Shown: positions 1,765 through 23,782, numbered from the stretch's first letter. The stretch: DNA of 64,000 nt from an uncultured Bacilli bacterium (GCA_934183155.1 CAKPSB010000002.1:64834-128833), one strand, 5' to 3'. Numbers and translations are program-made. The notes: a model not told the origin generated them from the sequence alone.

Positions 1765-2148
1765 ATGAACAATTTAAAAGTCGTAATCGACGCAGGACAT
1801 GGAGGCACAGATAGTGGTGCGGTAAGTGGAAATGTAAAAGAAAAAGATTTAACGTTAATGATTTCAAAATATATGCTTGAACAATTTAAAAATAAAGGAA
1901 TAGATTCTACCTTAATTAGAAATACAGATGAAAGTATTTCACCAGCTGAAAGAACAAAAAGAATATTAGATGCCTATGGTGATAAGTCCAATGTTATAAT
2001 AATTTCTAATCACATTAACGCATCTGGTGCGAATGGTAAGAATGTAGGCAAAGCAAGTAGTGTCTTGTTTGCTTTAAAACAAAAGAATTTTGGCTCAATG
2101 TTGAAATTCTTTTTTTGTATATCGTTAAAAAGTTTGTTTCGTAGTTAA
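1765..2148 (+). pseudogene. 5′ fragment of an N-acetylmuramoyl-L-alanine amidase gene (Amidase_3) interrupted by the integrative element; host-derived sequence ends near 2030, after which the reading frame runs into element DNA
   Basis: 'VVIDAGHGGTDSGA' and 'HINA' Amidase_3 motifs are present; the catalytic Glu region (GAEVY) is missing here and appears at 11731-11740 in the same frame after the GGTGC core. Confidence 0.65.
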
Positions 2149-2212
2149 TATATGAAGAATAATCGTAATAATTTGACATTTTTATAAAAAAATTACTCTG
2201 TATCGTAATAAA

Positions 2213-2241
2213 TTGACAAAAATTAAATATAGTATTATAAT
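2213..2241 (+). promoter_or_regulatory. consensus sigma-A-type promoter (TTGACA-17-TATAAT) driving the cargo genes
   Basis: TTGACA at 2213-2218, 17-nt spacer, TATAAT at 2236-2241; preceded by two direct copies of ATCGTAATAAWTTGACA at 2162-2178 and 2202-2218. Confidence 0.5.
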
Positions 2242-2267
2242 GTATATATAAGAAAGGAAGATGGATT

Positions 2268-3464
2268 ATGGTTATTCGTGAAAGATATTTAAAATTAATA
2301 AGACCATTTTATGATCAAGAGTTAATTAAAGTGTTAATTGGTATTAGACGTTCTGGAAAATCAGTTATTTTAAAACAAATAATAGATGAGCTAAAAGAAA
2401 ATAATGTTGATGATAATCATATTATCTATATTAACTTTGAAGATTACGATTATGAGGAATATACTGATCCTAAAAAGTTAAACAATTATGTTAAAGAAAG
2501 AATAATTGATGATAAAAAATATTATATATTCTTTGATGAAATTCAAAATGTTGATAAATGGGAAAAAGTTGTTAATTCATTAAGAGCAACAAAGAACACA
2601 TCTATTTTTATAACTGGTTCTAATAGTGATTTATTATCTAGTGATTTAGCAACCCATATTGCAGGAAGATATGTTAGTTTTAAAATAACTCCATTTACAT
2701 TTGATGAAGTTTGTAAATTATTAAATATTACAGATAATAGAGATATTGAAGATGCATTTAATGATTATATTAAATGGGGTGGAATGCCACAAAGATTTAT
2801 GCAAAAAGATGACATTTCAAGAAAAACTTATTTAAATGATATTTATGATTCAATAATAATAAAAGATATCGTAAAAAGATTTAATATTAAAGATATTGAT
2901 TTGTTAAATAGAATAGTTACTTATATTTTAACTACTCCATCTCAAGTATTTTCACCTGATAGTTTAAAAAAATATATGCAAAGTGATTCTAGAAATGTAT
3001 CATTAGAAACATTATATAATTATCTTGATTATATAACTCGTGCAAACCTTATTTCAAAAGCAGAAAGATATGATGTTAGAGGTAAAAGAATTCTTACAGG
3101 TAAATATAAATATTATTTAACTGATTTAGGTTTTACTAATATTTTAAGTGAAGGTAAGAAAGAGCAAATAGGTGCTTATTTAGAAAATATTGTTTATAAT
3201 GAACTAATTGCTAGAGGATATAGTGTTAATATTGGTACATTAGAAAATGGTGAAATAGATTTTATAGCAACAAGGTTCAATGAAAAAATATACATTCAAG
3301 TTACTTATATTTTAAGTGATGAAACAGTAATTGAAAGAGAATTTAATGCTTATAAAAAGATTGAAGATAACTATCCAAAATATGTTCTTTCAATGGATAA
3401 ATTTGATTTATCACAAAATGGAATAATTCATAAAAATATAATTGATTGGTTGTTAAAAAAATAA
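2268..3464 (+). CDS. AAA-family ATPase of the DUF4143 (COG1373) type
   Basis: Walker A 'GIRRSGKS', Walker B 'IFFDEIQ'; characteristic C-terminal DUF4143-like region; RBS GAAAGGAAG. Confidence 0.7.
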   Translation: MVIRERYLKLIRPFYDQELIKVLIGIRRSGKSVILKQIIDELKENNVDDNHIIYINFEDYDYEEYTDPKKLNNYVKERIIDDKKYYIFFDEIQNVDKWEKVVNSLRATKNTSIFITGSNSDLLSSDLATHIAGRYVSFKITPFTFDEVCKLLNITDNRDIEDAFNDYIKWGGMPQRFMQKDDISRKTYLNDIYDSIIIKDIVKRFNIKDIDLLNRIVTYILTTPSQVFSPDSLKKYMQSDSRNVSLETLYNYLDYITRANLISKAERYDVRGKRILTGKYKYYLTDLGFTNILSEGKKEQIGAYLENIVYNELIARGYSVNIGTLENGEIDFIATRFNEKIYIQVTYILSDETVIEREFNAYKKIEDNYPKYVLSMDKFDLSQNGIIHKNIIDWLLKK

Positions 3465-3586
3465 TACAAAAACATGGAATTTCAAATAATTAATTTGATT
3501 AAAGATATATTTTAATTATTAATTAAAATGACATCATGTAATTAAAATGACATCATGTATTTATTTCTATAAGGAGTTGGTTAGAA

Positions 3587-5695
3587 ATGGCAAATAAAAA
3601 TACAAATTTACAAAATGCTAAAAATAAAAAAGATGATGAATTTTATACAACATATGAGGATATCGAAAAAGAAATAATAAATTATAAGATACATTTTAAA
3701 AACAAAACAGTATTTTGTAATTGTGATGATCCATTTGAATCTAACTTTTGCAAGTATTTTTTGAAAAACTTTAATGTATTGGAAATAAAAAGATTAATAT
3801 GTACATCATACTATTCTTCTAAAATTATATCAAAAGAATTAAATTTCTTAAAAAAAGGTGAAAAAAAGTCTAGAACTAAAGGATACGTATTAGATATACA
3901 AAAATTTGTAGATACAAAAGAAGTAATATCAGATGATGTAATTTGTAATTTATTAAAAGAATCAGGCAATATAAAAGAATTAAAAGGTACAGGAGACTTT
4001 CAAAGTGATGAATGTTTAAACTACTTGAAAGAATCAGATATAGTCGTAACTAATCCACCATTTTCTTTATTTAGAGAATTTGTCTCTATTATCATGAAAT
4101 ATAAAAAGAAGTTCTTAATTGTTGGTAATCAAAATGCACTAACATATAAAGAAATATTTCCGTTGATAAAGAATGATGAATTATGGACTGGGTATCAGTT
4201 TGGAGAGATGAAATTTAGAGTGCCCAAAACTTCTAAACCTAGAACTACAAGATACTGGGTTGATGATACAGGACAAAAATGGAGAAGTTTAGGAAATGCA
4301 ATGTGGTTAACAAACATAGATAATGAACGAAGGCATAGAGAAATTAATTTAACAAAAAAATACAATTCAAAAGATTACCCAAAATATGATAATTTTGATG
4401 CAATAAATGTAAAAACAATAAATGACATACCATATGATTACTTTGGTATTATGGGAGTACCAATAACTATTATAAATAGGTATAATAGTGAGCAATTTGA
4501 AATTGTTGGAGAAGCTAATCATGGTTCTGATAATGAATATGATTTATTTAAACCAGTTTTAAATGGAAAGGAATTATATAAAAAAATATTGATTAGAAGA
4601 AGGTGTAAAGAAGTGAAAGAAAAAGAATTTGTTATTTTAGACTTATTTAGTGGTGCAGGTGGTTTTTCTTATGGTATGGAAAAAAACAAACATTTTAAGA
4701 CTGCTATTGCGTTAGATATAAATGAATCTGCACTAAAAACATTTAAACACAATATGCCAAATACAACAACAGTTTTAGGTGATATTACTAATGAAGAAAT
4801 AAAACAAAAAATTATTAAATTAAGCAAAGAGAAAAAGGTTAATATGATTATAGGTGGACCACCATGTCAAGGTTTTTCACTAAAAGGGAAAAAATTAGGA
4901 TTAAGTGATCCAAGAAATTTTTTATTTAACGAATATTTGAATATAGTTGAATCAATTAGACCAGAAGTGTTTGTGATAGAAAATGTAAAAGCATTATTGT
5001 CTACATCATCAGGATGGTTTAAGGAACAAATAATAAATAGAGTAAAAAGTATGGGTTATTATGTTGATTGTGGAATTTTGACAGCATCGGATTTTGGCGT
5101 ACCACAATCTAGACAAAGAGCTATATTTATTTGTTCAAAAAACAAAAAAATTGAATTGCCAACTATACAAAAAAGAAAAAAGGTGACAATTAGAGATGCG
5201 ATATTTGATTTGGCATATTTAAATTCTGGCGATGGAGAATTTGAACAAGAATATATAACATCGCCTATAAGTTCATATCAAAAACTTATGAGAAAAGGAA
5301 GTGTTAAATTATATAATCATAAAGCCTCTAATCATTCTGAGGTTGCAATAAAAAAACTTCAAATGATCCCACCAGAATGTGGTAAAGAACATTTGCCAAA
5401 GGAAATGCTTGGAAAACAAAAATTTAGTGGGACATGGGGGAGATTAAAATGGGACGATGTTTCTCCAACAATTGATACAAGATTTGATGCTTCATCGAAT
5501 GGGACAAATAATCATCCGTTTTTAAACAGGGCAATTACACCAAGAGAAGCGGCTAGAATTCAATCTTTTGACGATAAATTCGTTTTTTTAGGTACAAAAG
5601 TTTGTGTAAGAGAACAAATCGGTAATGCTGTGCCACCTTTATTGGCAAAAGCAATTGCTGATAAAATATATAATGAGATAGGAGTGGAATTATGA
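3587..5695 (+). CDS. bifunctional DNA methyltransferase: N-terminal M.EcoRI-family N6-adenine MTase domain fused to a C-terminal C5-cytosine (Dcm-type) MTase domain
   Basis: N-terminal half carries 'DDEFYTTYEDIE', 'CNCDDPFESNFCKYF' and 'DIVVTNPPFSLFREF', the M.EcoRI-family hallmarks. C-terminal half carries C5-MTase motifs I 'LFSGAGGFS', IV 'GGPPCQGFS', VI 'ENV', VIII 'QSRQRAIF' and X 'GNAVPP'. Confidence 0.8.
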   Translation: MANKNTNLQNAKNKKDDEFYTTYEDIEKEIINYKIHFKNKTVFCNCDDPFESNFCKYFLKNFNVLEIKRLICTSYYSSKIISKELNFLKKGEKKSRTKGYVLDIQKFVDTKEVISDDVICNLLKESGNIKELKGTGDFQSDECLNYLKESDIVVTNPPFSLFREFVSIIMKYKKKFLIVGNQNALTYKEIFPLIKNDELWTGYQFGEMKFRVPKTSKPRTTRYWVDDTGQKWRSLGNAMWLTNIDNERRHREINLTKKYNSKDYPKYDNFDAINVKTINDIPYDYFGIMGVPITIINRYNSEQFEIVGEANHGSDNEYDLFKPVLNGKELYKKILIRRRCKEVKEKEFVILDLFSGAGGFSYGMEKNKHFKTAIALDINESALKTFKHNMPNTTTVLGDITNEEIKQKIIKLSKEKKVNMIIGGPPCQGFSLKGKKLGLSDPRNFLFNEYLNIVESIRPEVFVIENVKALLSTSSGWFKEQIINRVKSMGYYVDCGILTASDFGVPQSRQRAIFICSKNKKIELPTIQKRKKVTIRDAIFDLAYLNSGDGEFEQEYITSPISSYQKLMRKGSVKLYNHKASNHSEVAIKKLQMIPPECGKEHLPKEMLGKQKFSGTWGRLKWDDVSPTIDTRFDASSNGTNNHPFLNRAITPREAARIQSFDDKFVFLGTKVCVREQIGNAVPPLLAKAIADKIYNEIGVEL

Positions 5696-6567
5696 ATATA
5701 GAAATGGCATATTTAATTGGAATGATATTAGGCAATGGAGAAATTCAAAAGGGTAATCACGAAACAATTGTAACTATTGATATACCACATAAAAATTTAT
5801 ATACTGACGATTTTAAGGATGTAAAAATATATGTAAAAGCTAGTATTACTGATATACGAGATATTGTTGAACCACTTATTGGAAGCAACTTAAAACTTAC
5901 ACAGGAAGATAGATCAACTATAATTTCTTTTGTTAAACCGAATGAAGAATATGTAATGAGGCAAATACTGAAATTTGTTGGAAATGGTCGTAAACATTCA
6001 ACTATGGAAATGAATCCCGATTTATTTAGTATGACAAGTGATGAAAAAAAATCATTGCTTAGAGGTATTGCGGATGTTACAGGATATATTAGAAAAAGTA
6101 ACATTGCTTTTGGACAAGAGGGAGCTCATAGAGTGTACATTGAAATTCCGTGTAATTGGAAAATGGTTATTGATATTGCAAACATGTTAAAAGACGTTGA
6201 TATTCCAATTCAAACAATAGATTTTGGACATCCTAATTTTAGAGATAGTAATTTAATAAAGTATAATGAAGGTATGCCTAATTATTGGAAAAAAGAGCAT
6301 CAAATTAAAATATATGCAAATGAATTTTTACCAATTGGGTTTAATATAAAACATAAACAAGAGGCTTTAGAAAAATATAGTGATGAACTTTTAAAACATC
6401 TTAATCCAGAAAAGACTCATAAATATTATTGGGAAAAAAACATAAAGAAAGGTAAAGAAAAGTTAAAACATCCAGGTGAAAATGACCCATCCTTACCTAA
6501 GGAAATACGGGGAAAACATTTTAATTCATGGACAGAGTTAGCAAGGGTATTGGGTTATGATAAATAA
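5692..6567 (+). CDS. hypothetical protein translationally coupled to the methyltransferase (ATGA overlap); candidate restriction/effector component
   Basis: Start overlaps the MTase stop. Two weak LAGLIDADG-like segments ('LIGMILGNGE', 'LRGIADVTG'). No secure family assignment from sequence alone. Confidence 0.35.
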   Translation: MNIEMAYLIGMILGNGEIQKGNHETIVTIDIPHKNLYTDDFKDVKIYVKASITDIRDIVEPLIGSNLKLTQEDRSTIISFVKPNEEYVMRQILKFVGNGRKHSTMEMNPDLFSMTSDEKKSLLRGIADVTGYIRKSNIAFGQEGAHRVYIEIPCNWKMVIDIANMLKDVDIPIQTIDFGHPNFRDSNLIKYNEGMPNYWKKEHQIKIYANEFLPIGFNIKHKQEALEKYSDELLKHLNPEKTHKYYWEKNIKKGKEKLKHPGENDPSLPKEIRGKHFNSWTELARVLGYDK

Positions 6568-7054
6568 TGTTTCTAAAGAAATTGAATTGTATGAGCCAAT
6601 GAGAAAATGGTTGCAAAAATATTTAGAGGAAAAGTATAAAAATGCTGAAGTAATAACTATTGATTCACATGCTAGAACTTTAGATTCATATTTGAATCAA
6701 TTTGGCTTGCTTGATCAATATCCTCTAACTGTTGGGCTAGACATTCAGGTAGATGTTTTAGGTATAGTAAAGTACAAGAATAGTACTAATCTTATTTTCA
6801 TTGAGGCAAAAAAGACGCAACTTAATCTTCATGATTTGGGACAATTATGGGCTTATTGTAAGTTGTGTGATCCTCTTGAGGCCTTTCTACTATCATCATA
6901 TGGATTGGGAAGTTTAAACAAATTATTCAATAATTTATTGAGAGATGATTTATTAGATTTTGGTGATGGTAAAAAGATTAAAAAAATGCAAGTTGGGAAG
7001 TGGAATATTATAACTAACAATATAGATTATAATTCGTTAATTCCTAAAATTTAG
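6557..7054 (+). CDS. small PD-(D/E)xK nuclease-fold protein (putative)
   Basis: 'GLDIQVDVLG…IFIEAKK' fits the D…(D/E)xK restriction-endonuclease-like pattern; overlaps the upstream gene by 11 nt. Confidence 0.4.
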   Translation: MINNVSKEIELYEPMRKWLQKYLEEKYKNAEVITIDSHARTLDSYLNQFGLLDQYPLTVGLDIQVDVLGIVKYKNSTNLIFIEAKKTQLNLHDLGQLWAYCKLCDPLEAFLLSSYGLGSLNKLFNNLLRDDLLDFGDGKKIKKMQVGKWNIITNNIDYNSLIPKI

Positions 7055-7092
7055 TAGTTATACTATTACATGGATGAGGTAGGAGATGAAAT

Positions 7093-9234
7093 ATGGAATT
7101 ATTTTTAAAAAAAGTTGAAAACGCATTTGGAATTAAAAGTTTACATTTAAATTTGGAAAATGATAAGAAAATGTATCAAGAATTAATATATTCTAAAAAT
7201 GGTTCTTTTAAAACTTCTTTTTCAAATACTTTATATAATTTAAGTAATGGTACGTTAGAAAATGTATTTGATAGATTAACAGATGAAAAAGCTATTTTAG
7301 ATATATCTATTTTAGAAAATGGTAAAGAAATAAAAAATTTTGACAATCGATTTGTTGTTTTTTCTAGAGAAATATATGAACAGCATTCTAAATTATTGTC
7401 TGATTATAGTTCTGAATTAGAGACACTTACTATCGATAAAAAAAATAGTGAATATATAAATGAATTATTAACTGAGGAAACTATAGAAATCAAATTACAG
7501 ATTGATAATTATTTAAAAGGTACTGGTTTAAACTTTGAAATATTACTTGATATGTTTTCTAATTTAGAAGATGGATACTTAGATAGAATAATTCAATTAC
7601 TGAATACAATTATTAATCATGAAGCTCAAGACATTAGTGAAATAAATATAAAAAAAATATATCAGAAAGCATATGATATTGTTGATCAGAGCGAATTTCA
7701 AAGCAAAATATCAAATTACATTCAGGTATTAGAAAATAAAATTAATGCTCAACTTTTTGACAAAAATTTTAACGAAAATAATTGCTTACAGTTTATAAAT
7801 AATGTTGATAAAGCAAAATATTTATCAGAAACAAAATCTAGGGGCTTATTTTTAAAAGATAAAGTATACTATGATATTGACGAAGTAAAAAAAATATTTG
7901 AAGAAGAAATTAAAAAAATATCAAAAGACCCTGAAATAATTGAACAAAGTAAAGAAATTACTAAATTAATGGGAACTGCTAAAGAATCTGAGTTTTTAAA
8001 AGAATCAATTCAAAAAAACCCTTTGCTTGTTAAACAGTTATCTGCTGGTAGAAAAAATATTCTTTTATCATATTTAAAATCTTCAAGTATAGATTACAAT
8101 TATTGGTTAGAAGTTGTAAAAAAAGCAAAAAAAGAATTAAATAATGTTTTAAAAATTGCGCAGGATAAACAAACGAATTTTGAACGTGCAATTGAAATAT
8201 ACAAAAATAGATTTCATCCAATTTTTGACATCAAAATAGTTAATAAGGCAGAGTCCATGTTAGGCATAAAAACTCCTACTATTACTTTTTATCATAATAG
8301 ATATTGTGAGATTCCTGTCTCAGAAACAAAATTAAGCCAAATTTTATCTTCTGGAGAAAAAACAACGCTTAATATATTAAAATTTATAGTTGAATATGAA
8401 AATTGCAAAAAATATCACCCATTTATAATTTTAGATGATATCGTAGAAACTTTTGATTATTCCAATCGCTATGCTTTTATGGAATACATAAATGATTTAG
8501 TAAATTTGGATGTTCCAACAATTGTTATGACGCATAATTTTGAATTTTATAGAACAGTTAGTAAAAGAATACCAAAATTAAGAAAAAGTGTTGCATCTGC
8601 CAACTCTAACGGCGTTGTAGATATTCAAACTAATAATCGAATTAACAAAAACATGGAAAATGTTTTAAAGTGCTCAAATATTTATGATTTCTTTTGTGCC
8701 ATTCCATATTTAAGAGAAATTAAAACAATTTTATTGGAAGACACCAAAACATTAGATTCGTGCCTTCATTACAAAGAAAACACTTCTAAATTACAAATTA
8801 AAGATATATTATTACAATTTCCAAGTAATGCTATAAAAAGTCTTAAAATAGATGAAAATGATATTTACATGGAAAAGTTGTTTGAAATAGCAGACAATTT
8901 ATCTGGATTTGATGATTTTGATATTGTAAAAAAAACAATTTTATCACTTTCTTGCAGACTTTTAATAGAAAGAAAAATAATTGCAAACAATTTTAATTTA
9001 TTAACTAATATTAATACGAATCAAACTGCACAGCTTCTTGATTTATACGGTGAAAAGTTATTTCCAAATGTAAAAAAATATCTTGAAGCAGTACAGTTAT
9101 CAACACCTGAGTTTATTCATGCTAATGCATTTATGTATGAACCATTAATTGACATAAATGGAAAATACTTGTTTGAATTATATAATCAAATTAAAAAAAT
9201 ACCTGATGAAAAAATATGGAAAAATAAAAATTAA
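7093..9234 (+). CDS. SMC/RecF/ABC-fold ATPase with a long coiled-coil-like insertion, a degenerate Walker A and an uncharacterised ~230-aa C-terminal domain (defence-associated)
   Basis: N-terminal 'SKNGSFKTS' (degenerate GxxxxGKT); signature-like 'LSSGEKTTLNIL'; Walker B/D-loop 'FIILDDIVETFD'; H-loop 'IVMTHNF'. Confidence 0.5.
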   Translation: MELFLKKVENAFGIKSLHLNLENDKKMYQELIYSKNGSFKTSFSNTLYNLSNGTLENVFDRLTDEKAILDISILENGKEIKNFDNRFVVFSREIYEQHSKLLSDYSSELETLTIDKKNSEYINELLTEETIEIKLQIDNYLKGTGLNFEILLDMFSNLEDGYLDRIIQLLNTIINHEAQDISEINIKKIYQKAYDIVDQSEFQSKISNYIQVLENKINAQLFDKNFNENNCLQFINNVDKAKYLSETKSRGLFLKDKVYYDIDEVKKIFEEEIKKISKDPEIIEQSKEITKLMGTAKESEFLKESIQKNPLLVKQLSAGRKNILLSYLKSSSIDYNYWLEVVKKAKKELNNVLKIAQDKQTNFERAIEIYKNRFHPIFDIKIVNKAESMLGIKTPTITFYHNRYCEIPVSETKLSQILSSGEKTTLNILKFIVEYENCKKYHPFIILDDIVETFDYSNRYAFMEYINDLVNLDVPTIVMTHNFEFYRTVSKRIPKLRKSVASANSNGVVDIQTNNRINKNMENVLKCSNIYDFFCAIPYLREIKTILLEDTKTLDSCLHYKENTSKLQIKDILLQFPSNAIKSLKIDENDIYMEKLFEIADNLSGFDDFDIVKKTILSLSCRLLIERKIIANNFNLLTNINTNQTAQLLDLYGEKLFPNVKKYLEAVQLSTPEFIHANAFMYEPLIDINGKYLFELYNQIKKIPDEKIWKNKN

Positions 9235-9642
9235 TGGTTAAAAAACAATGTTTTTTTACATAATTTTGTCATTTTCGTTTACTTAATAACGTTCTCTTTT
9301 TTGACATTGACTTCTAATTTATTTACGATATAATTATTATAATATAGCAATAGTTCTAGGATATGAACTATTAGATGCTAAAATACTATATTCAGTTTAT
9401 GAGTATAGTATTTTTTTGTAAGGAGGAATTGTTATCTAAAATTATATAAACAAAAAGTATGTACCAAGAAATTATAAAAAAATAAATAATTAAGGTACCT
9501 AAAAAAGTTGGTTTATGTGTGAAAAGAGGTTCATAATTAGCAATTTTGTTAATCCAAAAGTATGTCATTTGTATAACCGTTTGTGTGTCTAACTGCTATT
9601 TTTGATACAAAATTTGCTATTTTTAGTTAACCCAATAGTATG

Positions 9643-9746
9643 ACATTTATTTTAATGTATGACAAAGTAGTCTTTCACAATCCCTTTAAAATAGGGCTAA
9701 ACTCCCCACTGGGAAGTTGTTTGTCAGCCATCCTTATCCTGCTAAA
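9643..9746 (+). ncRNA. candidate structured RNA/DNA element inside the island's non-coding region (function unknown)
   Basis: Locally GC-rich. Outer inverted repeat TGACAAA…TTTGTCA encloses two hairpins (CCCT-ttaaaat-AGGG and TCCC-cact-GGGA). No ORF. Confidence 0.25.
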
Positions 9747-9924
9747 AACAAACACGCGGAATATTTAGAAAATTAGAGAATTAAAGTCATAAGTTATGTA
9801 CCCAATTTTATATAAAAACAATAAAAAAATTTATTAAGGAGGAGTGATTTATAAGATGTAAAAGTAATATAAATTTAAGTTTTAGGAATATATTTAAGTA
9901 TGAAACCAAAAGGGGTAGATTGGT

Positions 9925-10110
9925 ATGATAATAACTGAAACTTTTAAAAATGGTGGTAAAGATATTGGGGCTTTATTACAAGAATATGTATGCTTAATAC
10001 TTAAATATAAAGATGAAAATGGTAAAATAGATGACACAAATGATGGTAAGAGAGTTATAATGGAATCGGCAAACAAGATGCTATGCAAAAGAAAGGAGAA
10101 TAATGTATAG
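9925..10110 (+). CDS. small hypothetical protein overlapping the recombinase start; possible accessory or directionality factor
   Basis: 61-aa ORF preceded by GGGG RBS-like sequence; stop overlaps the recombinase ATG. Confidence 0.25.
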   Translation: MIITETFKNGGKDIGALLQEYVCLILKYKDENGKIDDTNDGKRVIMESANKMLCKRKENNV

Positions 10111-11677
10111 CACAGTAAAACCGCCATCATTTTATAATGTAGGAATATATATAAGATTATCGCAAGAAGATGAGGATAAAGCACATAAAAGAGAGTCTGA
10201 AAGCGAAAGTGTATTAAATCAAAGAAGTTTACTTATGAACTTTTTGAGGGATAATGGATTTGTTTTAACTGATGAGTATGTTGATGATGGATATTCAGGT
10301 ACTAACTTTGATAGACCAGCATTTAAAAGATTACTTGAAGACATAGAAAAAGGAAAAATAAATTGTGTCATAACTAAAGACTTATCAAGATTAGGTAGAG
10401 ATTATATCAAATGTGGTTATTATATAGAACAATATTTTCCATTAAAGAAAGTTAGATATATATCTATACTAGATAATGTAGATACTTTTCTAGATTCTGC
10501 AAATAATGATATAGCACCTTTCAAAGCTTTATTTAATGATATGACTAGTAAAGATACATCAAAGAAAATAAAATCAATATTAAGAGATAAAAAAGTGAAA
10601 GGTAAGTTTATAGGTAGTAAACCCAGTTTTGGCTATATGAGAGATCCACTTGATAAAGGACATCTAGTGCCAAACCCAGACACAGCATGGATAGTAAAAA
10701 GAATATTTAATGAAGTATCAAGAGGAGATAAAATATCAGATATAATTGAAAGATTAAATAATGAGAATATTCCAACACCAAGTGCATATAAACAAATAAA
10801 AAAATCAAAAAGACAAATAAATGGATATATTTGGACTTGTAGTACGATTAACAAAATATTAAAAAATAGAATGTATACTGGTGATATGATTCAAAATGTT
10901 CAGACAAAATTAAACTATAAATCACAAAAGAGAATATGTCTTTCTAGTGAATATTGGATAATTGTAGAAAATACTCATGAACCATTAGTAAATAGGGTAA
11001 TATTTAATCAAATACAGACAAGTGCTAATAGAACTAGAACAGTAAAATTAAACCGTCCACAGAGGCTATTAGAGGGCTTACTTTATTGCAAAGAGTGTGG
11101 TAATAAGCTAACGGTTAGTTATAGGGAAAAGCGCAATTACTGGTCTATAAATTGCAATAAATATTCTAGAAGTCCAAGACAAAGATTATGTGAACCACAT
11201 TTTTCAGAATATAATAGTTTTGAAAAAATAATTTTAAATCAAATCAAAAAAACTTGTAAAAAATATATAGAAAAAGTTGACATTGATAGTTTAGTATCTA
11301 ATATAAAAAGTGAGAAGGATAACAAGGAAGATTTGATTATAGAAAAACAAAAATTAGAAAGTAATATCAAAGAACTACAACTAAAAATAGATGCTTTATA
11401 TGAAGATAAATATAATGGGATAATCTCAGTTGATACTTATACAAGATTATCTTCTAATACAGAAAATCTAATAAGAACATACAACTCTAGAATAAAAGAA
11501 TTAGAAAATTCTATTAATGAAGTTCCTAAAAAACATAATGATGAAGAAATAAAACAAAAAATAAAAGAATTAATTAGTATGAAAAAACCTACTAGAGAAT
11601 TATTATTTATACTAGTAGATAAAATAATTGTTGATAAAGATAAAAATGTAGAAATAATATATAATTTTAATAAATAA
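10103..11677 (+). CDS. large serine recombinase (resolvase/invertase N-terminal catalytic domain, recombinase domain, zinc ribbon and coiled-coil)
   Basis: 'VGIYIRLSQED', 'YVDDGYSGTNFDRPAFKRLLEDI', 'ITKDLSRLGRD', Cys-rich 'CKECGNKL…C' zinc ribbon, C-terminal coiled-coil; 524 aa. Confidence 0.85.
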   Translation: MYSTVKPPSFYNVGIYIRLSQEDEDKAHKRESESESVLNQRSLLMNFLRDNGFVLTDEYVDDGYSGTNFDRPAFKRLLEDIEKGKINCVITKDLSRLGRDYIKCGYYIEQYFPLKKVRYISILDNVDTFLDSANNDIAPFKALFNDMTSKDTSKKIKSILRDKKVKGKFIGSKPSFGYMRDPLDKGHLVPNPDTAWIVKRIFNEVSRGDKISDIIERLNNENIPTPSAYKQIKKSKRQINGYIWTCSTINKILKNRMYTGDMIQNVQTKLNYKSQKRICLSSEYWIIVENTHEPLVNRVIFNQIQTSANRTRTVKLNRPQRLLEGLLYCKECGNKLTVSYREKRNYWSINCNKYSRSPRQRLCEPHFSEYNSFEKIILNQIKKTCKKYIEKVDIDSLVSNIKSEKDNKEDLIIEKQKLESNIKELQLKIDALYEDKYNGIISVDTYTRLSSNTENLIRTYNSRIKELENSINEVPKKHNDEEIKQKIKELISMKKPTRELLFILVDKIIVDKDKNVEIIYNFNK

Positions 11678-11730
11678 AAGGTTAGTTAATACCTGCCTAC
11701 ATTCCACGACTTCGGGGGAGGAGAAGGTGC

Positions 11731-12661
11731 TGAAGTAATATACGCTTTAAGAGATAATAGTAATTTAGCAAAAAATATATTAACCTCATTAGGAAATGCT
11801 GGCCAAAAAATGAGAAAATATTTTCAAAGAAGATTACCAAGTAATACATCAAAAGATTATTACTTTATCCACAGAAATACAGGTCAAAATACAAAACCAG
11901 TAATTGTAGAATATGGTTTTATTGATAATCCTAAAGATTTAGCAAAAATTCAAGAAAATTATAAAAAATATGTTGATGCAGTGGTTGATGCAGTCATAAA
12001 AACTTATGAAGGTAAAACAATAGAAAACTTACCATCAAATGGAAAATATTATACAGTAAAAGCAGGCGATAGCCTATGGAAAATCGCTAAAGAAAATAAT
12101 ACAACAGTAGATGAAATTAAAAAATTAAATAACTTAAAATCCAACAATTTAGTAGTCGGTCAAACATTAAAATTAAGTGAAAAAACAAATGACAGCGATA
12201 AATATATTGTAATGAGTGGCGATAGTCTATGGAAAATCGCCAACCAATATGGTCTTACCGTAAATCAGTTAAAACAATTAAATAATTTAACAAGCGATAA
12301 TCTAGAAATTGGCCAAGAATTAAAAATAAAAAACAATATGGCAAAAGATGAGACAAATATATATACAGTAAAAGCAGGCGATAGTCTATGGAAAATTGCA
12401 AGCCAATATGGTCTTACCGTAAATCAGTTAAAGCAATTAAATAATTTAACAAGTGATAATTTAGAAATTGGCCAAAAGTTAAAAATAAAAAACAATATAT
12501 CAAAAGATGAGACAAATATATATACAGTAAAAGCAGGTGATAGTCTTTGGAATATTGCAAACAGATTCAAAACAACTGTTAATGAATTAAAAAAGTTAAA
12601 TAATTTAACTAACAATTATTTAACAATAGGACAAACATTAAAAATTCCAACTACCGATTAA
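11731..12661 (+). pseudogene. 3′ portion of the interrupted amidase gene: remainder of the Amidase_3 domain plus four LysM repeats. The amidase frame is open upstream through element DNA from 11690 (stop codon at 11687-11689); the six-frame-track ORF starts at an internal ATG at 11810
   Basis: 'GGGEGAEVIYALRDN…', 'YYFIHRNTGQNTKPVIVEYGFIDNPKD'; four LysM motifs 'YTVKAGDSLWKIA…'. Confidence 0.65.
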
Positions 12662-20005: not shown

Positions 20006-21802
20006 ATGAAGAAAAAAGGATTTACATTAATAGAATTACTAGCAGTAATAACTATATTAGGAATTATATTATTAATAATAGTTCCAAACGTTACGGGTAT
20101 GTTAAACCGTTCAAAAGGAAGAATAAATGAAGAACAAAAAAGAGCATTAATAGATAGTGCCAAAAAATGGGGGACAAACAATTTATTACTCAAAAACGGT
20201 AAAGCGTATTATAATAACAATCAAAAAAGATATGTAACCTTAGGTGAATTAAAAAACTATGGATACCTAGAAGATAAAAAAATTAAAAATTTAATCAATA
20301 AATCAGATATTCCTGATGAAACAAAAATATGTATAAATTATAAAAACAATCAATTTGTCTATTCAATTAATGATGATAATATGTGTGAAAACAATTACCC
20401 TATTATGATGAAAAGAGATACGTCTAAAGCATTCTGGCAATCTGATTATAAAAATAAAATATCTACAGTAGCTGTTCTTGATAATAAAAACGTTCCTTCA
20501 ACTGTAGTAGCATCATGGGATGTATCAGAGAAACAAAACAAATCAGTTATGGCTTGGATTATAGATGATCCAAATAATAGCGGTATGTATAAGCTTTATA
20601 TTGGTGGTGATGGAGGAGTTGCTGCACCAGCTGATTCAAGTAATTTATTTGATGGGGGTATCGAAGGCCAAGAAGAAAATTTTGGTAAAACAAAGACAAT
20701 GAATTTAGCAAAATTAGATACATCAAGAGTAACAAATATGGAGGGGATGTTTGCTGGTTGTGGTTCTCTTACGAACTTAGATGTAAGTAACTTTGATACA
20801 AGCAAAGTAACAAATATGAGTTATATGTTTTCTGGCTGTGAGTCTCTTACCAGCTTAGCTTTAAATAGCTTCGATACAAGCAAAGTAACAGATATGAGTG
20901 GTATGTTTAGCTATAATTCTCTTACAAGTTTAGATGTAAGTAACTTTAATACAAGCAATGTAACAAATATGGCTTCTATGTTTAGGTACTGTAGTTCTCT
21001 TACCAACTTAGACATAAGTAACTTTAATACAAGCAAAGTAACAGATATGAGTGGTATGTTTAGCGATAGTTCTTTTACCAGCTTGGATTTAAGCAACTTT
21101 AATACAAGCAAAGTAACAGATATGAGTCGAATGTTTTATAATTATAGGTCTCTTACAAGCTTAGATTTAAGTAATTTTAACACAAGTAATGTAACAAATA
21201 TGAGTTATATGTTTGGCAGTTGTGGTTCTCTTACCAGCTTGGATTTAAGCAACTTTAATACAAGCAAAGTAACAAATATGGAAGCTATGTTTGATAGTTG
21301 TAGGGCTCTTACCAGCTTGGATTTAAGCAACTTTAATACAAGCAAAGTAACAAATATGTATTATATGTTTTATGACTGTAGTTCTCTTACAAACTTAGAC
21401 GTAAGTAACTTTAATACAAGCAAAGTAACAGATATGGGTTATATGTTTTTTCGCTGTAGTACTCTTACCAGCTTAGATTTAAGTAAATTTGATACCAGCA
21501 ATGTAGCAAATATGAGTGGTATGTTTAATTATTGTAGTTCTCTTACCAACTTAGATGTAAGTAACTTTAATACAAGCAAAGTAACAGATATGGGTTATAT
21601 GTTTAGGTATTGTAAATCTCTTACCAACCTAAAATTGTGTTCATTTGATACTTCTAAAGTAACAAATATGTATTCTATGTTTGAGGGTACTTCAAAATTA
21701 ACTAAAGTTTATGTTGGACCTAAATGGACAACGGCAAATGCTACTACAACTAGTATGTTTACTAGGAGTGGAGTATCAGCAGTAACAACAAATCAATGTT
21801 AA
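20006..21802 (+). CDS. prepilin-type N-terminal domain fused to a BspA/DUF285 leucine-rich-repeat surface protein (paralogue 1; ~13 repeats of 26 aa)
   Basis: 'MKKKGFTLIELLAVITIL' class-III signal; repeats 'SLTSLDLSNFNTSKVTNMSYMFxxC'; conserved C-terminus '…VSAVTTNQC'. Confidence 0.75.
   Translation: MKKKGFTLIELLAVITILGIILLIIVPNVTGMLNRSKGRINEEQKRALIDSAKKWGTNNLLLKNGKAYYNNNQKRYVTLGELKNYGYLEDKKIKNLINKSDIPDETKICINYKNNQFVYSINDDNMCENNYPIMMKRDTSKAFWQSDYKNKISTVAVLDNKNVPSTVVASWDVSEKQNKSVMAWIIDDPNNSGMYKLYIGGDGGVAAPADSSNLFDGGIEGQEENFGKTKTMNLAKLDTSRVTNMEGMFAGCGSLTNLDVSNFDTSKVTNMSYMFSGCESLTSLALNSFDTSKVTDMSGMFSYNSLTSLDVSNFNTSNVTNMASMFRYCSSLTNLDISNFNTSKVTDMSGMFSDSSFTSLDLSNFNTSKVTDMSRMFYNYRSLTSLDLSNFNTSNVTNMSYMFGSCGSLTSLDLSNFNTSKVTNMEAMFDSCRALTSLDLSNFNTSKVTNMYYMFYDCSSLTNLDVSNFNTSKVTDMGYMFFRCSTLTSLDLSKFDTSNVANMSGMFNYCSSLTNLDVSNFNTSKVTDMGYMFRYCKSLTNLKLCSFDTSKVTNMYSMFEGTSKLTKVYVGPKWTTANATTTSMFTRSGVSAVTTNQC
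20690..21660 (+). repeat. tandem 78-bp coding repeats (26-aa DUF285/BspA LRR units) in paralogue 1
   Basis: Periodic 'agcttagat(g/t)taagtaactttaatacaagcaaagtaaca(a/g)atatg' units. Confidence 0.8.
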
Positions 21803-21835: not shown

Positions 21836-23782
21836 ATGAAGAAAAAAGGATTTACATTAATAGAATTACTAGCAGTAATAACTATATTAGGAATTATATT
21901 ATTAATAGTAGTTCCAAACGTTACGGGTATGTTAAACCGTTCAAAAGGAAGAATAAATGAAGAACAAAAAAGAGCATTAATAGATAGTGCCAAAAAATGG
22001 GGGACAAACAATTTATTACTCAAAAACGGTAAAGCGTATTATAATAACAATCAAAAAAGATATGTAACCTTAGGTGAATTAAAAAACTATGGATACCTAG
22101 AAGATAAAAAAATTAAAAATTTAATCAATAAATCAGATATTCCTGATGAAACAAAAATATGTATAAATTATAAAAACAATCAATTTGTCTATTCAATTAA
22201 TGATGATAATATGTGTGAAAGCAATTACCCTATTATGATGGCAAGAGATAGGTCTAAAGCATTTTGGCAAAGTACATATAAAGATAAAATATCTACAGTA
22301 GATGTTCTCGATAATAAAAACGTTCCTTCAACTGTAGTAGCATCATGGGACGTATCAGAGAAACAAAATAAATCAGTTATGGCTTGGATTATAGATGACC
22401 CAGATAATAGTGGTATGTATAAACTTTATATTGGTGGTGATGGAGGAGTTGCTGCCCCAACTAATTCAAATGGGTTATTTGGTGGATATAATTCTAATTT
22501 TAGTAAAACAAAGACAATGAATTTAACTAATTTAGATACATCAAGAGTAACAAATATGATAATGATGTTTTATGATTGTAGTTCTCTTACCAGCTTAGAT
22601 TTAAGTAATTTTGATACAAGTAATGTAACAGATATGAGTAATATGTTTTATAAATGTAGTTCTCTTACGAACTTAGATATAAGTAATTTTAATACAAGCA
22701 AGGTAACAAATATGGATACTATGTTTTATGGTTGTAGTTCTCTTACTAGCTTAGACGTAAGTAACTTTGATACAAGAAATGTAACAGATATGAGCTGGAT
22801 GTTTAGTGGGTGCAGTAAACTTACCAACTTAGATGTAAGTAATTTTAATACAAGCAAAGTAACATCTATGAGTAGTATGTTTTCTGGTTGTAGTTCTCTT
22901 ACCAGCTTAGACGTAAGTAAATTTGATACAAGCAAAGTAACATCTATGAGAAGTATGTTTTCTGGTTGTAGTTCTCTTACCAGCTTAGACGTAAGTAAAT
23001 TTGATACAAGCAAAGTAACAAATATGAGTTATATGTTTTTCTTTTGTAGTTCTCTTACCAGCTTAAATGTAAGTAATTTTAATACAATCAAAGTAACAGA
23101 TATGAGTTTTATGTTTTCTGATTGTAAATCTCTTACAAACTCAGATGTAAGTAACTTTGATACAAGTAAAGTAAAGAATATGAGTGGTATGTTTAGGTAT
23201 TGTAGTTCTCTTACCAGCTTAGATGTAAGTAACTTTGATACAAGCAAAGTAACAAATATGGACAGTATGTTTCTGGGCTGCAGTAAACTTACCAGCTTAG
23301 ATTTAAACAACTTTAATACAAGCAAAGTAACGGATATGTTCCAAATGTTTACTCATTGTAATTCTCTTAAAAATTTAGATATAAGTAAATTTAATACGAG
23401 CAATGTAACAGATATGGGTTCTATGTTTTATGGCTGCAGTAAACTTACAAATTTAGATGTAAGTAACTTTAATACAAGCAATGTAACAAGTATGTTCCAA
23501 ATGTTTAGTGGGTGTTGGGCTCTTACCAGCTTAAATGTAAGCAACTTTGATACAAGCAAAGTAACAAATATGAGTTATATGTTTATAGCCTGCAGTAAAC
23601 TTACCAGCTTAAAATTGTGCTCATTTGATACATCTAAAGTAACGACAATGAATTCTATGTTTTATGGTACTTCAAAATTAGCTAAAGTTTATGTTGGATC
23701 TAAATGGACAACGGCAAATGCTACTACAACTAATATGTTTACTGGTAGTGGCGTATCAGCAGTAACAACAAATCAATGTTAA
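21836..23782 (+). CDS. prepilin-type N-terminal domain fused to a BspA/DUF285 LRR surface protein (paralogue 2; ~15 repeats)
   Basis: First ~630 nt >95% identical to paralogue 1; identical 33-bp upstream spacer. Confidence 0.75.
   Translation: MKKKGFTLIELLAVITILGIILLIVVPNVTGMLNRSKGRINEEQKRALIDSAKKWGTNNLLLKNGKAYYNNNQKRYVTLGELKNYGYLEDKKIKNLINKSDIPDETKICINYKNNQFVYSINDDNMCESNYPIMMARDRSKAFWQSTYKDKISTVDVLDNKNVPSTVVASWDVSEKQNKSVMAWIIDDPDNSGMYKLYIGGDGGVAAPTNSNGLFGGYNSNFSKTKTMNLTNLDTSRVTNMIMMFYDCSSLTSLDLSNFDTSNVTDMSNMFYKCSSLTNLDISNFNTSKVTNMDTMFYGCSSLTSLDVSNFDTRNVTDMSWMFSGCSKLTNLDVSNFNTSKVTSMSSMFSGCSSLTSLDVSKFDTSKVTSMRSMFSGCSSLTSLDVSKFDTSKVTNMSYMFFFCSSLTSLNVSNFNTIKVTDMSFMFSDCKSLTNSDVSNFDTSKVKNMSGMFRYCSSLTSLDVSNFDTSKVTNMDSMFLGCSKLTSLDLNNFNTSKVTDMFQMFTHCNSLKNLDISKFNTSNVTDMGSMFYGCSKLTNLDVSNFNTSNVTSMFQMFSGCWALTSLNVSNFDTSKVTNMSYMFIACSKLTSLKLCSFDTSKVTTMNSMFYGTSKLAKVYVGSKWTTANATTTNMFTGSGVSAVTTNQC
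22520..23650 (+). repeat. tandem 78-bp coding repeats in paralogue 2
   Basis: Same unit as paralogue 1; it also produces the spurious antisense ORFs listed in the track. Confidence 0.8.

Follow-up and report, generated by a model that had tools for sequence, protein, structure and literature searches.

In a 64,000-nucleotide stretch of DNA from an uncultured Bacilli bacterium (GCA_934183155.1 CAKPSB010000002.1:64834-128833; hereafter the window, with positions counted from its first letter), a gene at 3587-5695 on the forward strand encodes a predicted bifunctional DNA methyltransferase, which combines an M.EcoRI-type N6-methyladenine (m6A) half with a canonical 5-methylcytosine (m5C) half and is followed by two open reading frames (ORFs), termed here ORF291 and ORF165. 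We propose that these genes probably constitute a Type II restriction-modification (R-M) cassette, in which the double methylase is accompanied by a catalytically dead LAGLIDADG scaffold (ORF291) that recognizes the target site and a PD-(D/E)XK subunit (ORF165) that cleaves it; such a cassette would have an anti-phage or addiction function. For the wider claim that ORF291 and ORF165 represent a widespread and unannotated family of restriction endonucleases, in which the dead LAGLIDADG domain reads an asymmetric site and recruits the PD-(D/E)XK module, we consider the chances evenly balanced. As delimited here, this family extends over at least 252 species-level genomes and about 1,900 to 2,600 protein clusters, in addition to single-chain relatives.

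The methylase is specified by one unbroken ORF of 702 amino acids with an ATG start, which the Prokaryotic Genome Annotation Pipeline labels just “dcm.” Its N-terminal part (amino acids 7 to 333; 3605-4585) is an EcoRI_methylase domain (Pfam PF13651; E = 4e-120; 401.6 bits against a cut-off of 26.4), matched along positions 1 to 339 of the 345 positions of the profile. Authentic M.EcoRI, for which we used the copy adjoining R.EcoRI on an E. coli plasmid, is collinear end to end with amino acids 1 to 339 at 44% identity (E = 2e-87), and the two proteins agree in every residue of the catalytic block VVTNPPFSLFRE; the catalytic NPPF of the window protein occupies amino acids 156 to 159 (nucleotides 4052-4063). 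Only about 15 residues, forming a short Lys/Glu-rich junction (…KKILIRRRCKEVKEKEFV…; 4586-4633), link this domain to the C-5 cytosine methyltransferase domain (amino acids 350 to 695; 4634-5671). The latter is recovered as a single collinear match to the DNA_methylase family (PF00145; positions 3 to 323 of 324; E = 2e-70; 238.1 bits against a cut-off of 22) and by the NCBIfam model TIGR00675 (dcm; 201.6 bits against a cut-off of 100.65), and its motifs follow the canonical order, namely, I (FSGAGG, 354 to 359), IV (PPCQGFS, 425 to 431), VI (ENV, 465 to 467), VIII (QSRQR, 507 to 511), and X (GNAVPP, 679 to 684), with the catalytic cysteine of motif IV at Cys427 (nucleotides 4865-4867). The initial annotation, which had described a single chain with an M.EcoRI-collinear half and a full C5 half, is thus borne out by the ORF, the Pfam matches, and the identity to M.EcoRI. 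All the peptides that it quoted from the adenine half are present at the expected places (DEFYTTYEDIE, 17 to 27; CNCDDP, 44 to 49; SNFCKYF, 52 to 58; VVTNPPFSLFREF, 153 to 165; KYNSKDYPKYDNFDAINV, 258 to 275; IMGVPIT, 288 to 294), and the loss of catalytic residues that it had considered as a possible objection is not seen, with NPPF and every C5 motif intact. The 702-residue protein may, hence, reasonably be expected to deposit both m6A and m5C.

The association of this methylase with the two genes downstream of it is strict. One genome per species was scanned, which recovered ORF291 relatives in 252 species, and gene content was compared in the 80 best loci, all at least 67% identical; counts out of 80 refer to this set unless other loci are named. 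ORF291 is present in 80 of the 80 and ORF165 in 78, and wherever the contig allows the order is invariably adenine methylase, cytosine methylase, ORF291, and ORF165, with no further gene linked in more than 12 loci. Accordingly, ORF291 always takes third place in an operon headed by methylase genes, and it is found neither within an intron or intein nor as a free-standing homing gene in these 80 loci. The hosts comprise Bacillota, Bacteroidota, Alphaproteobacteria, Spirochaetota, Synergistota, Saccharibacteria, Desulfobacterota, and Melainabacteria, and a spread over so many phyla at such levels of identity is indicative of extensive horizontal transfer, which R-M modules typically undergo. 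Further, besides rep and a toxin-antitoxin system, the three genes (64%, 59%, and 48% identity) are the sole cargo of a 6.5-kb L. plantarum plasmid, two gut phages possess the cassette, and it recurs in differing serine-recombinase elements with differing cargo. Methylases and candidate nuclease are, thus, encoded and transferred as a unit in fixed order over phyla, plasmids, and phages, as is the rule for Type II R-M systems. In the window, the methylase stop codon overlaps the start of ORF291 (ATGA) and ORF291 overlaps ORF165 by 11 nucleotides; together with the gene order, these overlaps suggest coupled translation with the methylase made first. The initial annotation had tied the methylase to “downstream effector genes,” and this holds for the next two ORFs (5692-7054) but not for the 713-residue SMC-like gene beyond them, which accompanies the cassette in just 4 of the 80 loci. 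Its suggestion that the two marks protect against two nucleases fares less well, the methylase pair being linked to one two-part nuclease candidate. Scans with Pfam, NCBIfam, and PADLOC and the gene content of the 80 loci yielded no R.EcoRI-like gene in the cassette.

Several features of the cassette vary between loci. In one locus (L079, 6001-8200), the methylase and ORF291 are kept, ORF165 is gone, and an unrelated gene follows ORF291, which gives it the appearance of a decaying system. A small Xre-type helix-turn-helix (HTH) gene (63 to 65 amino acids) lies directly upstream of the adenine methylase in eight loci (L011, L012, L016, L019, L022, L024, L030, and L044); this subset also has ATGAC-N6-GTCAT palindromes, and the two features resemble the controller (C) proteins and C-boxes of R-M systems. 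The window cassette is without such an upstream gene. In six cassettes (L012, L022, L025, L049, L069, and L085), the cytosine methylase and ORF291 are separated by an additional ~350 bp, containing a gene of about 112 amino acids, which in three other loci sits downstream of the cassette. Just upstream of the ribosome-binding site of the window methylase, we read from the sequence a perfect tandem direct repeat of 19 bp (two copies of AATTAAAATGACATCATGT; 3521-3558), each copy of which holds the palindrome ACAT-C-ATGT. Only one copy is present in L007, a locus otherwise nearly identical, and the repeat may represent an operator or a promoter polymorphism. We rejected it as a recognition site because the motif is not conserved in other loci. 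Little could be drawn from a promoter and terminator scan, which gave 27 sites, where 30 were expected, and no terminators.

The fused or split state of the two methylases could be judged in 71 loci, of which 37 encode them as one ORF and 34 as two genes. The fused homologs measure 683 to 716 amino acids, and all 37 retain NPPF, FxGxGG, PPCQ, ENV, and GNAV. In the split form, the adenine-methylase gene ends right after a conserved KRILIRxK, and the ATG of the cytosine-methylase gene either overlaps it by 1 to 23 nucleotides or sits 1 to 10 nucleotides downstream; the junction of the window protein, which reads uninterrupted across this point, corresponds to the stop/start overlap of the split relatives. 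Carriers of the fused ORF include the isolates [Ruminococcus] torques ATCC 27756, Ruminococcus albus 8, and Haloimpatiens lingqiaonensis (complete genome), and it is also found on complete L. plantarum plasmids and in a phage genome; both methylase domains are present, at full length, in more than 120 protein clusters formed at 90% identity. On similarity trees, at least 9 to 14 changes of state are required, a number that is approximate, as it was obtained by unweighted pair group (UPGMA) clustering and Fitch parsimony. Since 34 of the 71 cassettes are split and the state has switched repeatedly (at least nine times), the single-chain status appears incidental to function, and the best explanation treats the two states as equivalent in function and subject to frequent interconversion. 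The fusion alone is mostly of annotation value, the current label being just “dcm,” and the switching offers a clean natural case of coupled overlapping genes fusing and splitting again.

Neither ORF291 (5692-6567, forward strand) nor ORF165 has a match at threshold in Pfam, NCBIfam, or PADLOC, and the members of both families (about 1,900 and 2,600 clusters, respectively) are annotated as “hypothetical proteins.” For ORF291, the AlphaFold2 model (predicted local distance difference test [pLDDT] score of 70.6; predicted template modeling score of 0.74) suggests a two-domain LAGLIDADG fold with a conserved C-terminal extension (GHPN…KEHQ…). A Foldseek search of PDB with this model returned 61 matches at E <= 1e-3, the top 50 of which consist entirely of LAGLIDADG homing endonucleases, a LAGLIDADG maturase, and WhiA; these include I-AniI, I-DmoI, I-Tsp061I, I-SceI, PI-SceI, I-OnuI, and WhiA (8dy9_I and 8dy7_I). 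Outside homing, the LAGLIDADG fold is known mainly from WhiA. The helices forming the domain interface in ORF291 are AYLIGMILGNGEI and LLRGIADVTGYI. An exhaustive profile search recovered 305 representatives of the family at 50% identity, and in full-length relatives at 25 to 57% identity Y7, G10, G16, and G125 are invariant. In active LAGLIDADG enzymes, each LAGLIDADG helix carries at its base an acidic residue that binds metal, which is the defining feature, as exemplified by D21 and E117 of I-DmoI, and WhiA is a non-nuclease through the loss of these catalytic acids (PMC3384342). The corresponding positions of ORF291 are N15 and T130, and in the relatives at 25 to 57% identity the first is R, N, K, or S and the second T, A, C, S, or G, but never D or E. 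This register is backed by alignments to PI-PfuI, I-SceI, and I-CreI that are weak and none of them significant alone (the hhalign comparisons with I-SceI and I-CreI were used for the motif register only). ORF291 is, thus, predicted to adopt a LAGLIDADG fold devoid of the acids by which the active members of that family are defined, and we postulate that it acts as a DNA-binding scaffold for the recognition of an asymmetric site. The C-terminal extension has a strictly conserved GHPN…(K/R)E(H/Q)Q signature.

Other observations on ORF291 concern its tail and its wider family. Its last ~45 residues (amino acids ~243 to 289; 6418-6558; …HPGENDPSLPKEIRGKHFNSWTELARVLGY) match units that occur as 7 to 11 tandem repeats in two otherwise unrelated proteins (P0429 and P0506); in one of them, the DNA-binding domain of I-TevI is matched below threshold (25.3 bits, with a cut-off of 27), a hint of the tail being a small DNA-binding module of the homing-endonuclease type. 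In four proteins of 991 to 1299 amino acids (P0452, P0458, P0460, and P0482), an ORF291-like domain stands C-terminal to 700 to 1100 residues without a Pfam match, which constitutes a third architecture. A match of the ORF291-family profile to uL6 in PDB (E = 0.049) was judged spurious.

The second partner, ORF165 (6557-7054, forward strand; 165 amino acids), appears to be a small nuclease of the PD-(D/E)XK type, for which we propose the role of cleavage subunit. Its AlphaFold2 model is confident (pLDDT 91.8), and E8, D66, E83, K85, Q96, and Y100 are invariant over domains at 24 to 80% identity, single-chain forms included. The resulting signature, E…(P)D…ExK…QxxxY, contains the core motif of the PD-(D/E)XK nucleases. 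The fold matches in PDB are weak (E = 0.02 to 0.9; 0.02 to 0.09 for the leading restriction endonucleases), and the best of them are mostly PD-(D/E)XK nucleases, namely, EcoT38I, BamHI, MspJI, Can2, and Hjc. Below threshold, Pfam returns YhcG_C in 6 of 19 members, along with HSDR_N, HSDR_N_2, and PDDEXK_4. ORF165 would, on this reading of its motif and model, supply phosphodiester cleavage. Matches of the ORF165 profile to designer pentatricopeptide repeats in PDB were set aside as a repeat artifact, as no single stretch passes and all fall on “IKPDVV.”

That the two proteins belong together is also suggested by their distant relatives. About 20 distant representatives of 539 to 557 amino acids unite an ORF291-like N-terminal part and an ORF165-like C-terminal part in one chain, the latter being detected by hmmsearch at E values of 1e-24 to 1e-10 with D…ExK kept. 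On the evidence of these chains, ORF291 and ORF165 are best taken as one enzyme. In a separate set of 80 loci encoding such single-chain forms, taken from environmental metagenomes (marine and freshwater), methylase genes lie directly downstream, in convergent orientation, in 66; the remaining 14 are mostly contigs that end within a few hundred bases. An N6_N4_Mtase is present at 65 of the 66 loci, alongside partners of the D12 class (23 to 24 loci), the gamma class N6_Mtase/Eco57I/TaqI_C (20), or MT-A70 (6), and two different methylases occur in 49 of the 66. In all, the nuclease family is associated with six methylase families, and this constant change of partner methylases, of which there are nearly always two, is a classic signature of restriction enzymes for asymmetric sites. 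A separate feature of the 540-residue forms (P0417 and others; alignment A6) is a four-cysteine insertion in the first LAGLIDADG-like domain, for example, CPLC…CKSC, which is probably a zinc ribbon; the cysteines (C48, C51, C61, and C64) are invariant or at least 90% conserved in A6, and the window ORF291 does not have them.

Taken together, we propose the following scheme. For asymmetric sites, one methylase is needed per strand, and enzymes work in pairs (PMC3874165). Each half of the methylase would bind its asymmetric target in one orientation only, the adenine half placing m6A on one strand and the cytosine half m5C on its complement or on the other half-site, such that the host site would be protected on both strands. 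In the window, the two methylases would be fused because the overlapping stop/start junction of the relatives is read through. ORF291, pseudo-dimeric and hence an intrinsically asymmetric reader, would bind the unmodified target, and ORF165 would cleave, as does the small subunit of BtsI/BsrDI or the FokI cleavage domain. For the cutting of both strands, there are several options: ORF165 may dimerize like the FokI domain, the enzyme may only nick, or a second site may be hidden in ORF291.

A number of points weigh against this scheme. One PD-(D/E)XK site per complex cannot alone account for a double-strand break. The ORF291 model is moderately confident, with residues 180 to 200 and 239 to 262 below a pLDDT of 50, and its fold matches have TM-scores of 0.35 to 0.66. 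At the sequence level, ORF291 shows no significant match to LAGLIDADG proteins: Pfam returns nothing even at E <= 10, the family profile finds only PI-PfuI among the LAGLIDADG proteins in PDB (E = 0.24), and hhalign against I-SceI and I-CreI gives a probability of about 1%. For ORF165, the best fold match reaches E = 0.02, and no nuclease model of Pfam, NCBIfam, or PADLOC scores above threshold. LAGLIDADG scaffolds, moreover, normally read 14 to 40 bp, which is odd for a defense enzyme beside ordinary methylases. Lastly, the invariant H180, P181, N182, E202, and H203 of ORF291 could form a second active site. This would retain the cassette while giving ORF291 a cryptic, non-LAGLIDADG active site (H180, N182, E202, and H203, in the long loop of the second domain) that nicks one strand as ORF165 nicks the other. 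The Class III heterodimeric Type IIS enzymes BtsI, BsrDI, and BspD6I work in this manner (PMC1950550; PMC3017599), ORF165 matches their small subunit in size and catalytic spacing, and such a site would use the strictly conserved His, Asn, and Glu that lie outside the LAGLIDADG motifs while accounting for the double-strand cleavage that a single PD-(D/E)XK site leaves unexplained. However, neither ORF291 nor any of the 31 diverged relatives has the (P/A/F)D-X13-17-E-X12-QR motif of those enzymes, H203 is either His or Gln in the single-chain forms, the conserved loop is of low confidence in the model, and neither Pfam nor Foldseek detects a known nuclease fold in that region; we, hence, regard a cryptic site as unlikely.

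The remaining alternatives dispense with restriction as such or with the fusion itself. The methylase could be an anti-restriction or orphan epigenetic enzyme of mobile elements covering two host specificities, leaving ORF291 and ORF165 to do something else, for example, as a homing or mobility nuclease or a regulator. Its presence on plasmids, phages, and integrative elements would fit, phage-borne multispecific methylases being known, and LAGLIDADG proteins are classically homing enzymes or, as with WhiA, regulators (PMC3384342). Against this stand the near-complete linkage of ORF291 and ORF165 to the methylases, in fixed order and with overlapping stop and start codons, the loss of the LAGLIDADG catalytic acids, and the location of the genes outside introns and inteins. 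Distant relatives that combine ORF291 and ORF165, moreover, lie beside entirely different methylase pairs, as expected of a restriction enzyme but not of a homing nuclease, and this leaves the anti-restriction explanation quite improbable. A non-classical defense system, in which the marks label self and the effectors sense another signal, as in BREX- or DISARM-like systems, or in which the nuclease is modification dependent, could be suggested by the two PADLOC candidates, PDC-S01 and PDC-S46, on both sides of the cassette and by the failure of every known restriction endonuclease model to match ORF291 or ORF165. Yet, beyond close relatives, the PDC genes are unlinked to the cassette (4 of 80 loci), the 6.5-kb plasmid shows the cassette to be self-sufficient, no ATPase or helicase component is found, and a modification-dependent nuclease would be lethal beside its own methylases; we hold such a system to be very improbable. 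Finally, the window derives from a metagenome-assembled genome, and about half of the relatives have two distinct genes whose ends overlap, so that a frameshift introduced by sequencing or assembly might have joined them. The window ORF has neither the frameshift nor the stop between the halves that the initial annotation had allowed for. The occurrence of the fused ORF with intact motifs in 37 independent loci, from isolates and a complete chromosome to complete plasmids and a phage, and in the more than 120 full-length clusters, permits this explanation to be practically dismissed. An R-M cassette with a dead LAGLIDADG reader and a PD-(D/E)XK cleavage subunit remains, in our view, the probable interpretation.

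An integrated mobile element (2040-11704; about 9.7 kb) carries the cassette. This element has a perfect 11-bp inverted repeat at its boundaries (GAATGTAGGCA at 2040 and its reverse complement at 11694) and encodes a large serine recombinase with Resolvase, Recombinase, and Zn_ribbon_recom domains (10103-11677, forward strand; Pfam and NCBIfam). It interrupts a gene for an N-acetylmuramoyl-L-alanine amidase (Amidase_3 and four LysM domains), the fragments of which lie at 1765-2148 and 11690-12661; when the two flanks are joined, the amidase motif is recovered (“…SNHINASGA…GGGEGAEVIY…”). In loci L004 to L006, an Amidase_3 gene is likewise split by a related recombinase element, the cargo of which differs. 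Amidase N-terminal fragments also lie upstream in L008 to L010. There could, thus, be a family of elements targeting the amidase gene, possibly excised developmentally in the manner of skin-type elements. Within the window element, the cassette is flanked by two phage defense candidates recognized by PADLOC, PDC-S01 (an AAA_14/DUF4143 ATPase; 2268-3464; E = 6e-150) and PDC-S46 (the SMC_N-like protein of 713 amino acids; 7093-9234; E = 1.5e-98), and is therefore part of a small defense island; we rejected both as components of the cassette itself, as they occur in so few of the 80 loci. Outside the element, the window consists of ordinary chromosomal DNA from an uncultured Bacilli metagenome-assembled genome of low GC content (28%), obtained from a Hadza gut sample. 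In this part, two adjacent paralogs (20006-21802 and 21836-23782) have an N-terminal prepilin-type methylation motif (N_methyl) in addition to DUF285 “Mycoplasma” leucine-rich repeats and may be pilin-like surface proteins of a low-GC Bacilli lineage.

Comparison with characterized systems places the methylase within a kind of enzyme that is already known. The Eco31I/BsaI systems have separate m6A and m5C enzymes, and the related Esp3I/BsmBI systems have a fusion of both, so that close relatives in this group, as in the cassette, are both fused and split (PMC3874165). Like the window protein, M.Esp3I/M.BsmBI (M.Alw26I/M.BsmAI) is one chain with an N-terminal m6A and a C-terminal m5C part. The initial annotation had taken the fusion of the two activities as a novelty, whereas with these precedents the unusual part is the nuclease partner. 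In M.Esp3I/M.Alw26I, the C5 half is circularly permuted, with motifs IX and X before I to VIII (PMC5944983), whereas that of the window protein runs canonically from I to X, and since it is not permuted the window protein belongs to a different lineage. Its adenine half, which is of the M.EcoRI type (PF13651), is another point of difference. The nuclease partner differs too, being a two-gene pair of a LAGLIDADG-like and a PD-(D/E)XK protein rather than the single Type IIS restriction endonuclease of the Esp3I group. The methylase fusion is, then, a separate lineage of an enzyme kind already described. M.EcoRI itself stands alone, acts at the palindrome GAATTC, and is partnered by R.EcoRI, whereas the corresponding domain of the window protein is paired or fused with an m5C methylase.

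On the nuclease side, a close parallel to ORF291 and ORF165 is seen in BtsI, BsrDI, BspD6I, and BstNBI, which likewise combine a large, specificity-bearing subunit with a small catalytic one (~18 to 25 kDa), two methylases, and an asymmetric site. Compared by published positions, the catalytic residues of BtsI-A (164 amino acids; D65, E78, and K80) and BsrDI-A (D67, E82, and K84) closely resemble D66, E83, and K85 of the 165-residue ORF165 (PMC1950550). Single-chain relatives are found on both sides, BsmI and BsrI in the one case and the 539- to 557-residue forms in the other (PMC1950550; PMC3017599). The BtsI and BsrDI large subunits, however, have an N-terminal (P/A/F)D-X13-17-E-X12-QR site and a target recognition domain, whereas ORF291 is predicted to be a LAGLIDADG protein without that motif (0 of 31 relatives), and their methylases are of the amino type (m6A or N4-methylcytosine) as opposed to the m6A and m5C of the cassette. 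We, therefore, rejected membership in the BtsI/BsrDI type, whose defining large-subunit motif is absent. FokI resembles the cassette in its separation of recognition from a nonspecific PD-(D/E)XK module, its asymmetric target, and its fused double methylase, but its recognition domain is a winged helix covalently joined to the cleavage domain, whereas the window arrangement comprises two polypeptides.

The predicted fold of ORF291 would extend the known range of restriction enzymes. LAGLIDADG is missing from a census of Type II restriction folds, in which PD-(D/E)XK, HNH, GIY-YIG, PLD, and half-pipe are listed (PMC2441816). It goes unmentioned, too, in a 2025 review of R-M biology, and the open-access literature searched yielded no description of it in a restriction or defense context; REBASE lay outside this search, and prior cataloging there is possible. 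Should the proposal be correct, LAGLIDADG would join the restriction-enzyme folds, with homing scaffolds recruited as a specificity module, and a function would be assigned to “hypothetical proteins” that number in the thousands in gut bacteria, plasmids, and phages. It would also provide new cutters or nickases for asymmetric sites, modular in having a binding subunit and a detachable cleavage subunit, for discovery and engineering. With WhiA/DUF199, ORF291 shares a bacterial two-domain LAGLIDADG fold that has lost its acids and been recruited to a host function (PMC3384342). WhiA, however, is a chromosomal Gram-positive transcription factor with a C-terminal HTH and neither nuclease partner nor methylases, whereas ORF291 belongs to a mobile R-M operon; no WhiA or HTH Pfam domain is found in ORF291, the C-terminal region of which is a different conserved extension. 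A parallel in design comes from engineered chimeras, in which inactive I-SceI serves as a binder for FokI or PvuII cleavage modules (PMC2685105, PMC3258161). These show that the combination of a dead LAGLIDADG domain with a cleavage module is workable; those chimeras are artificial, whereas ORF291 and ORF165 would be the natural counterpart of the inactive I-SceI plus FokI or PvuII nucleases.

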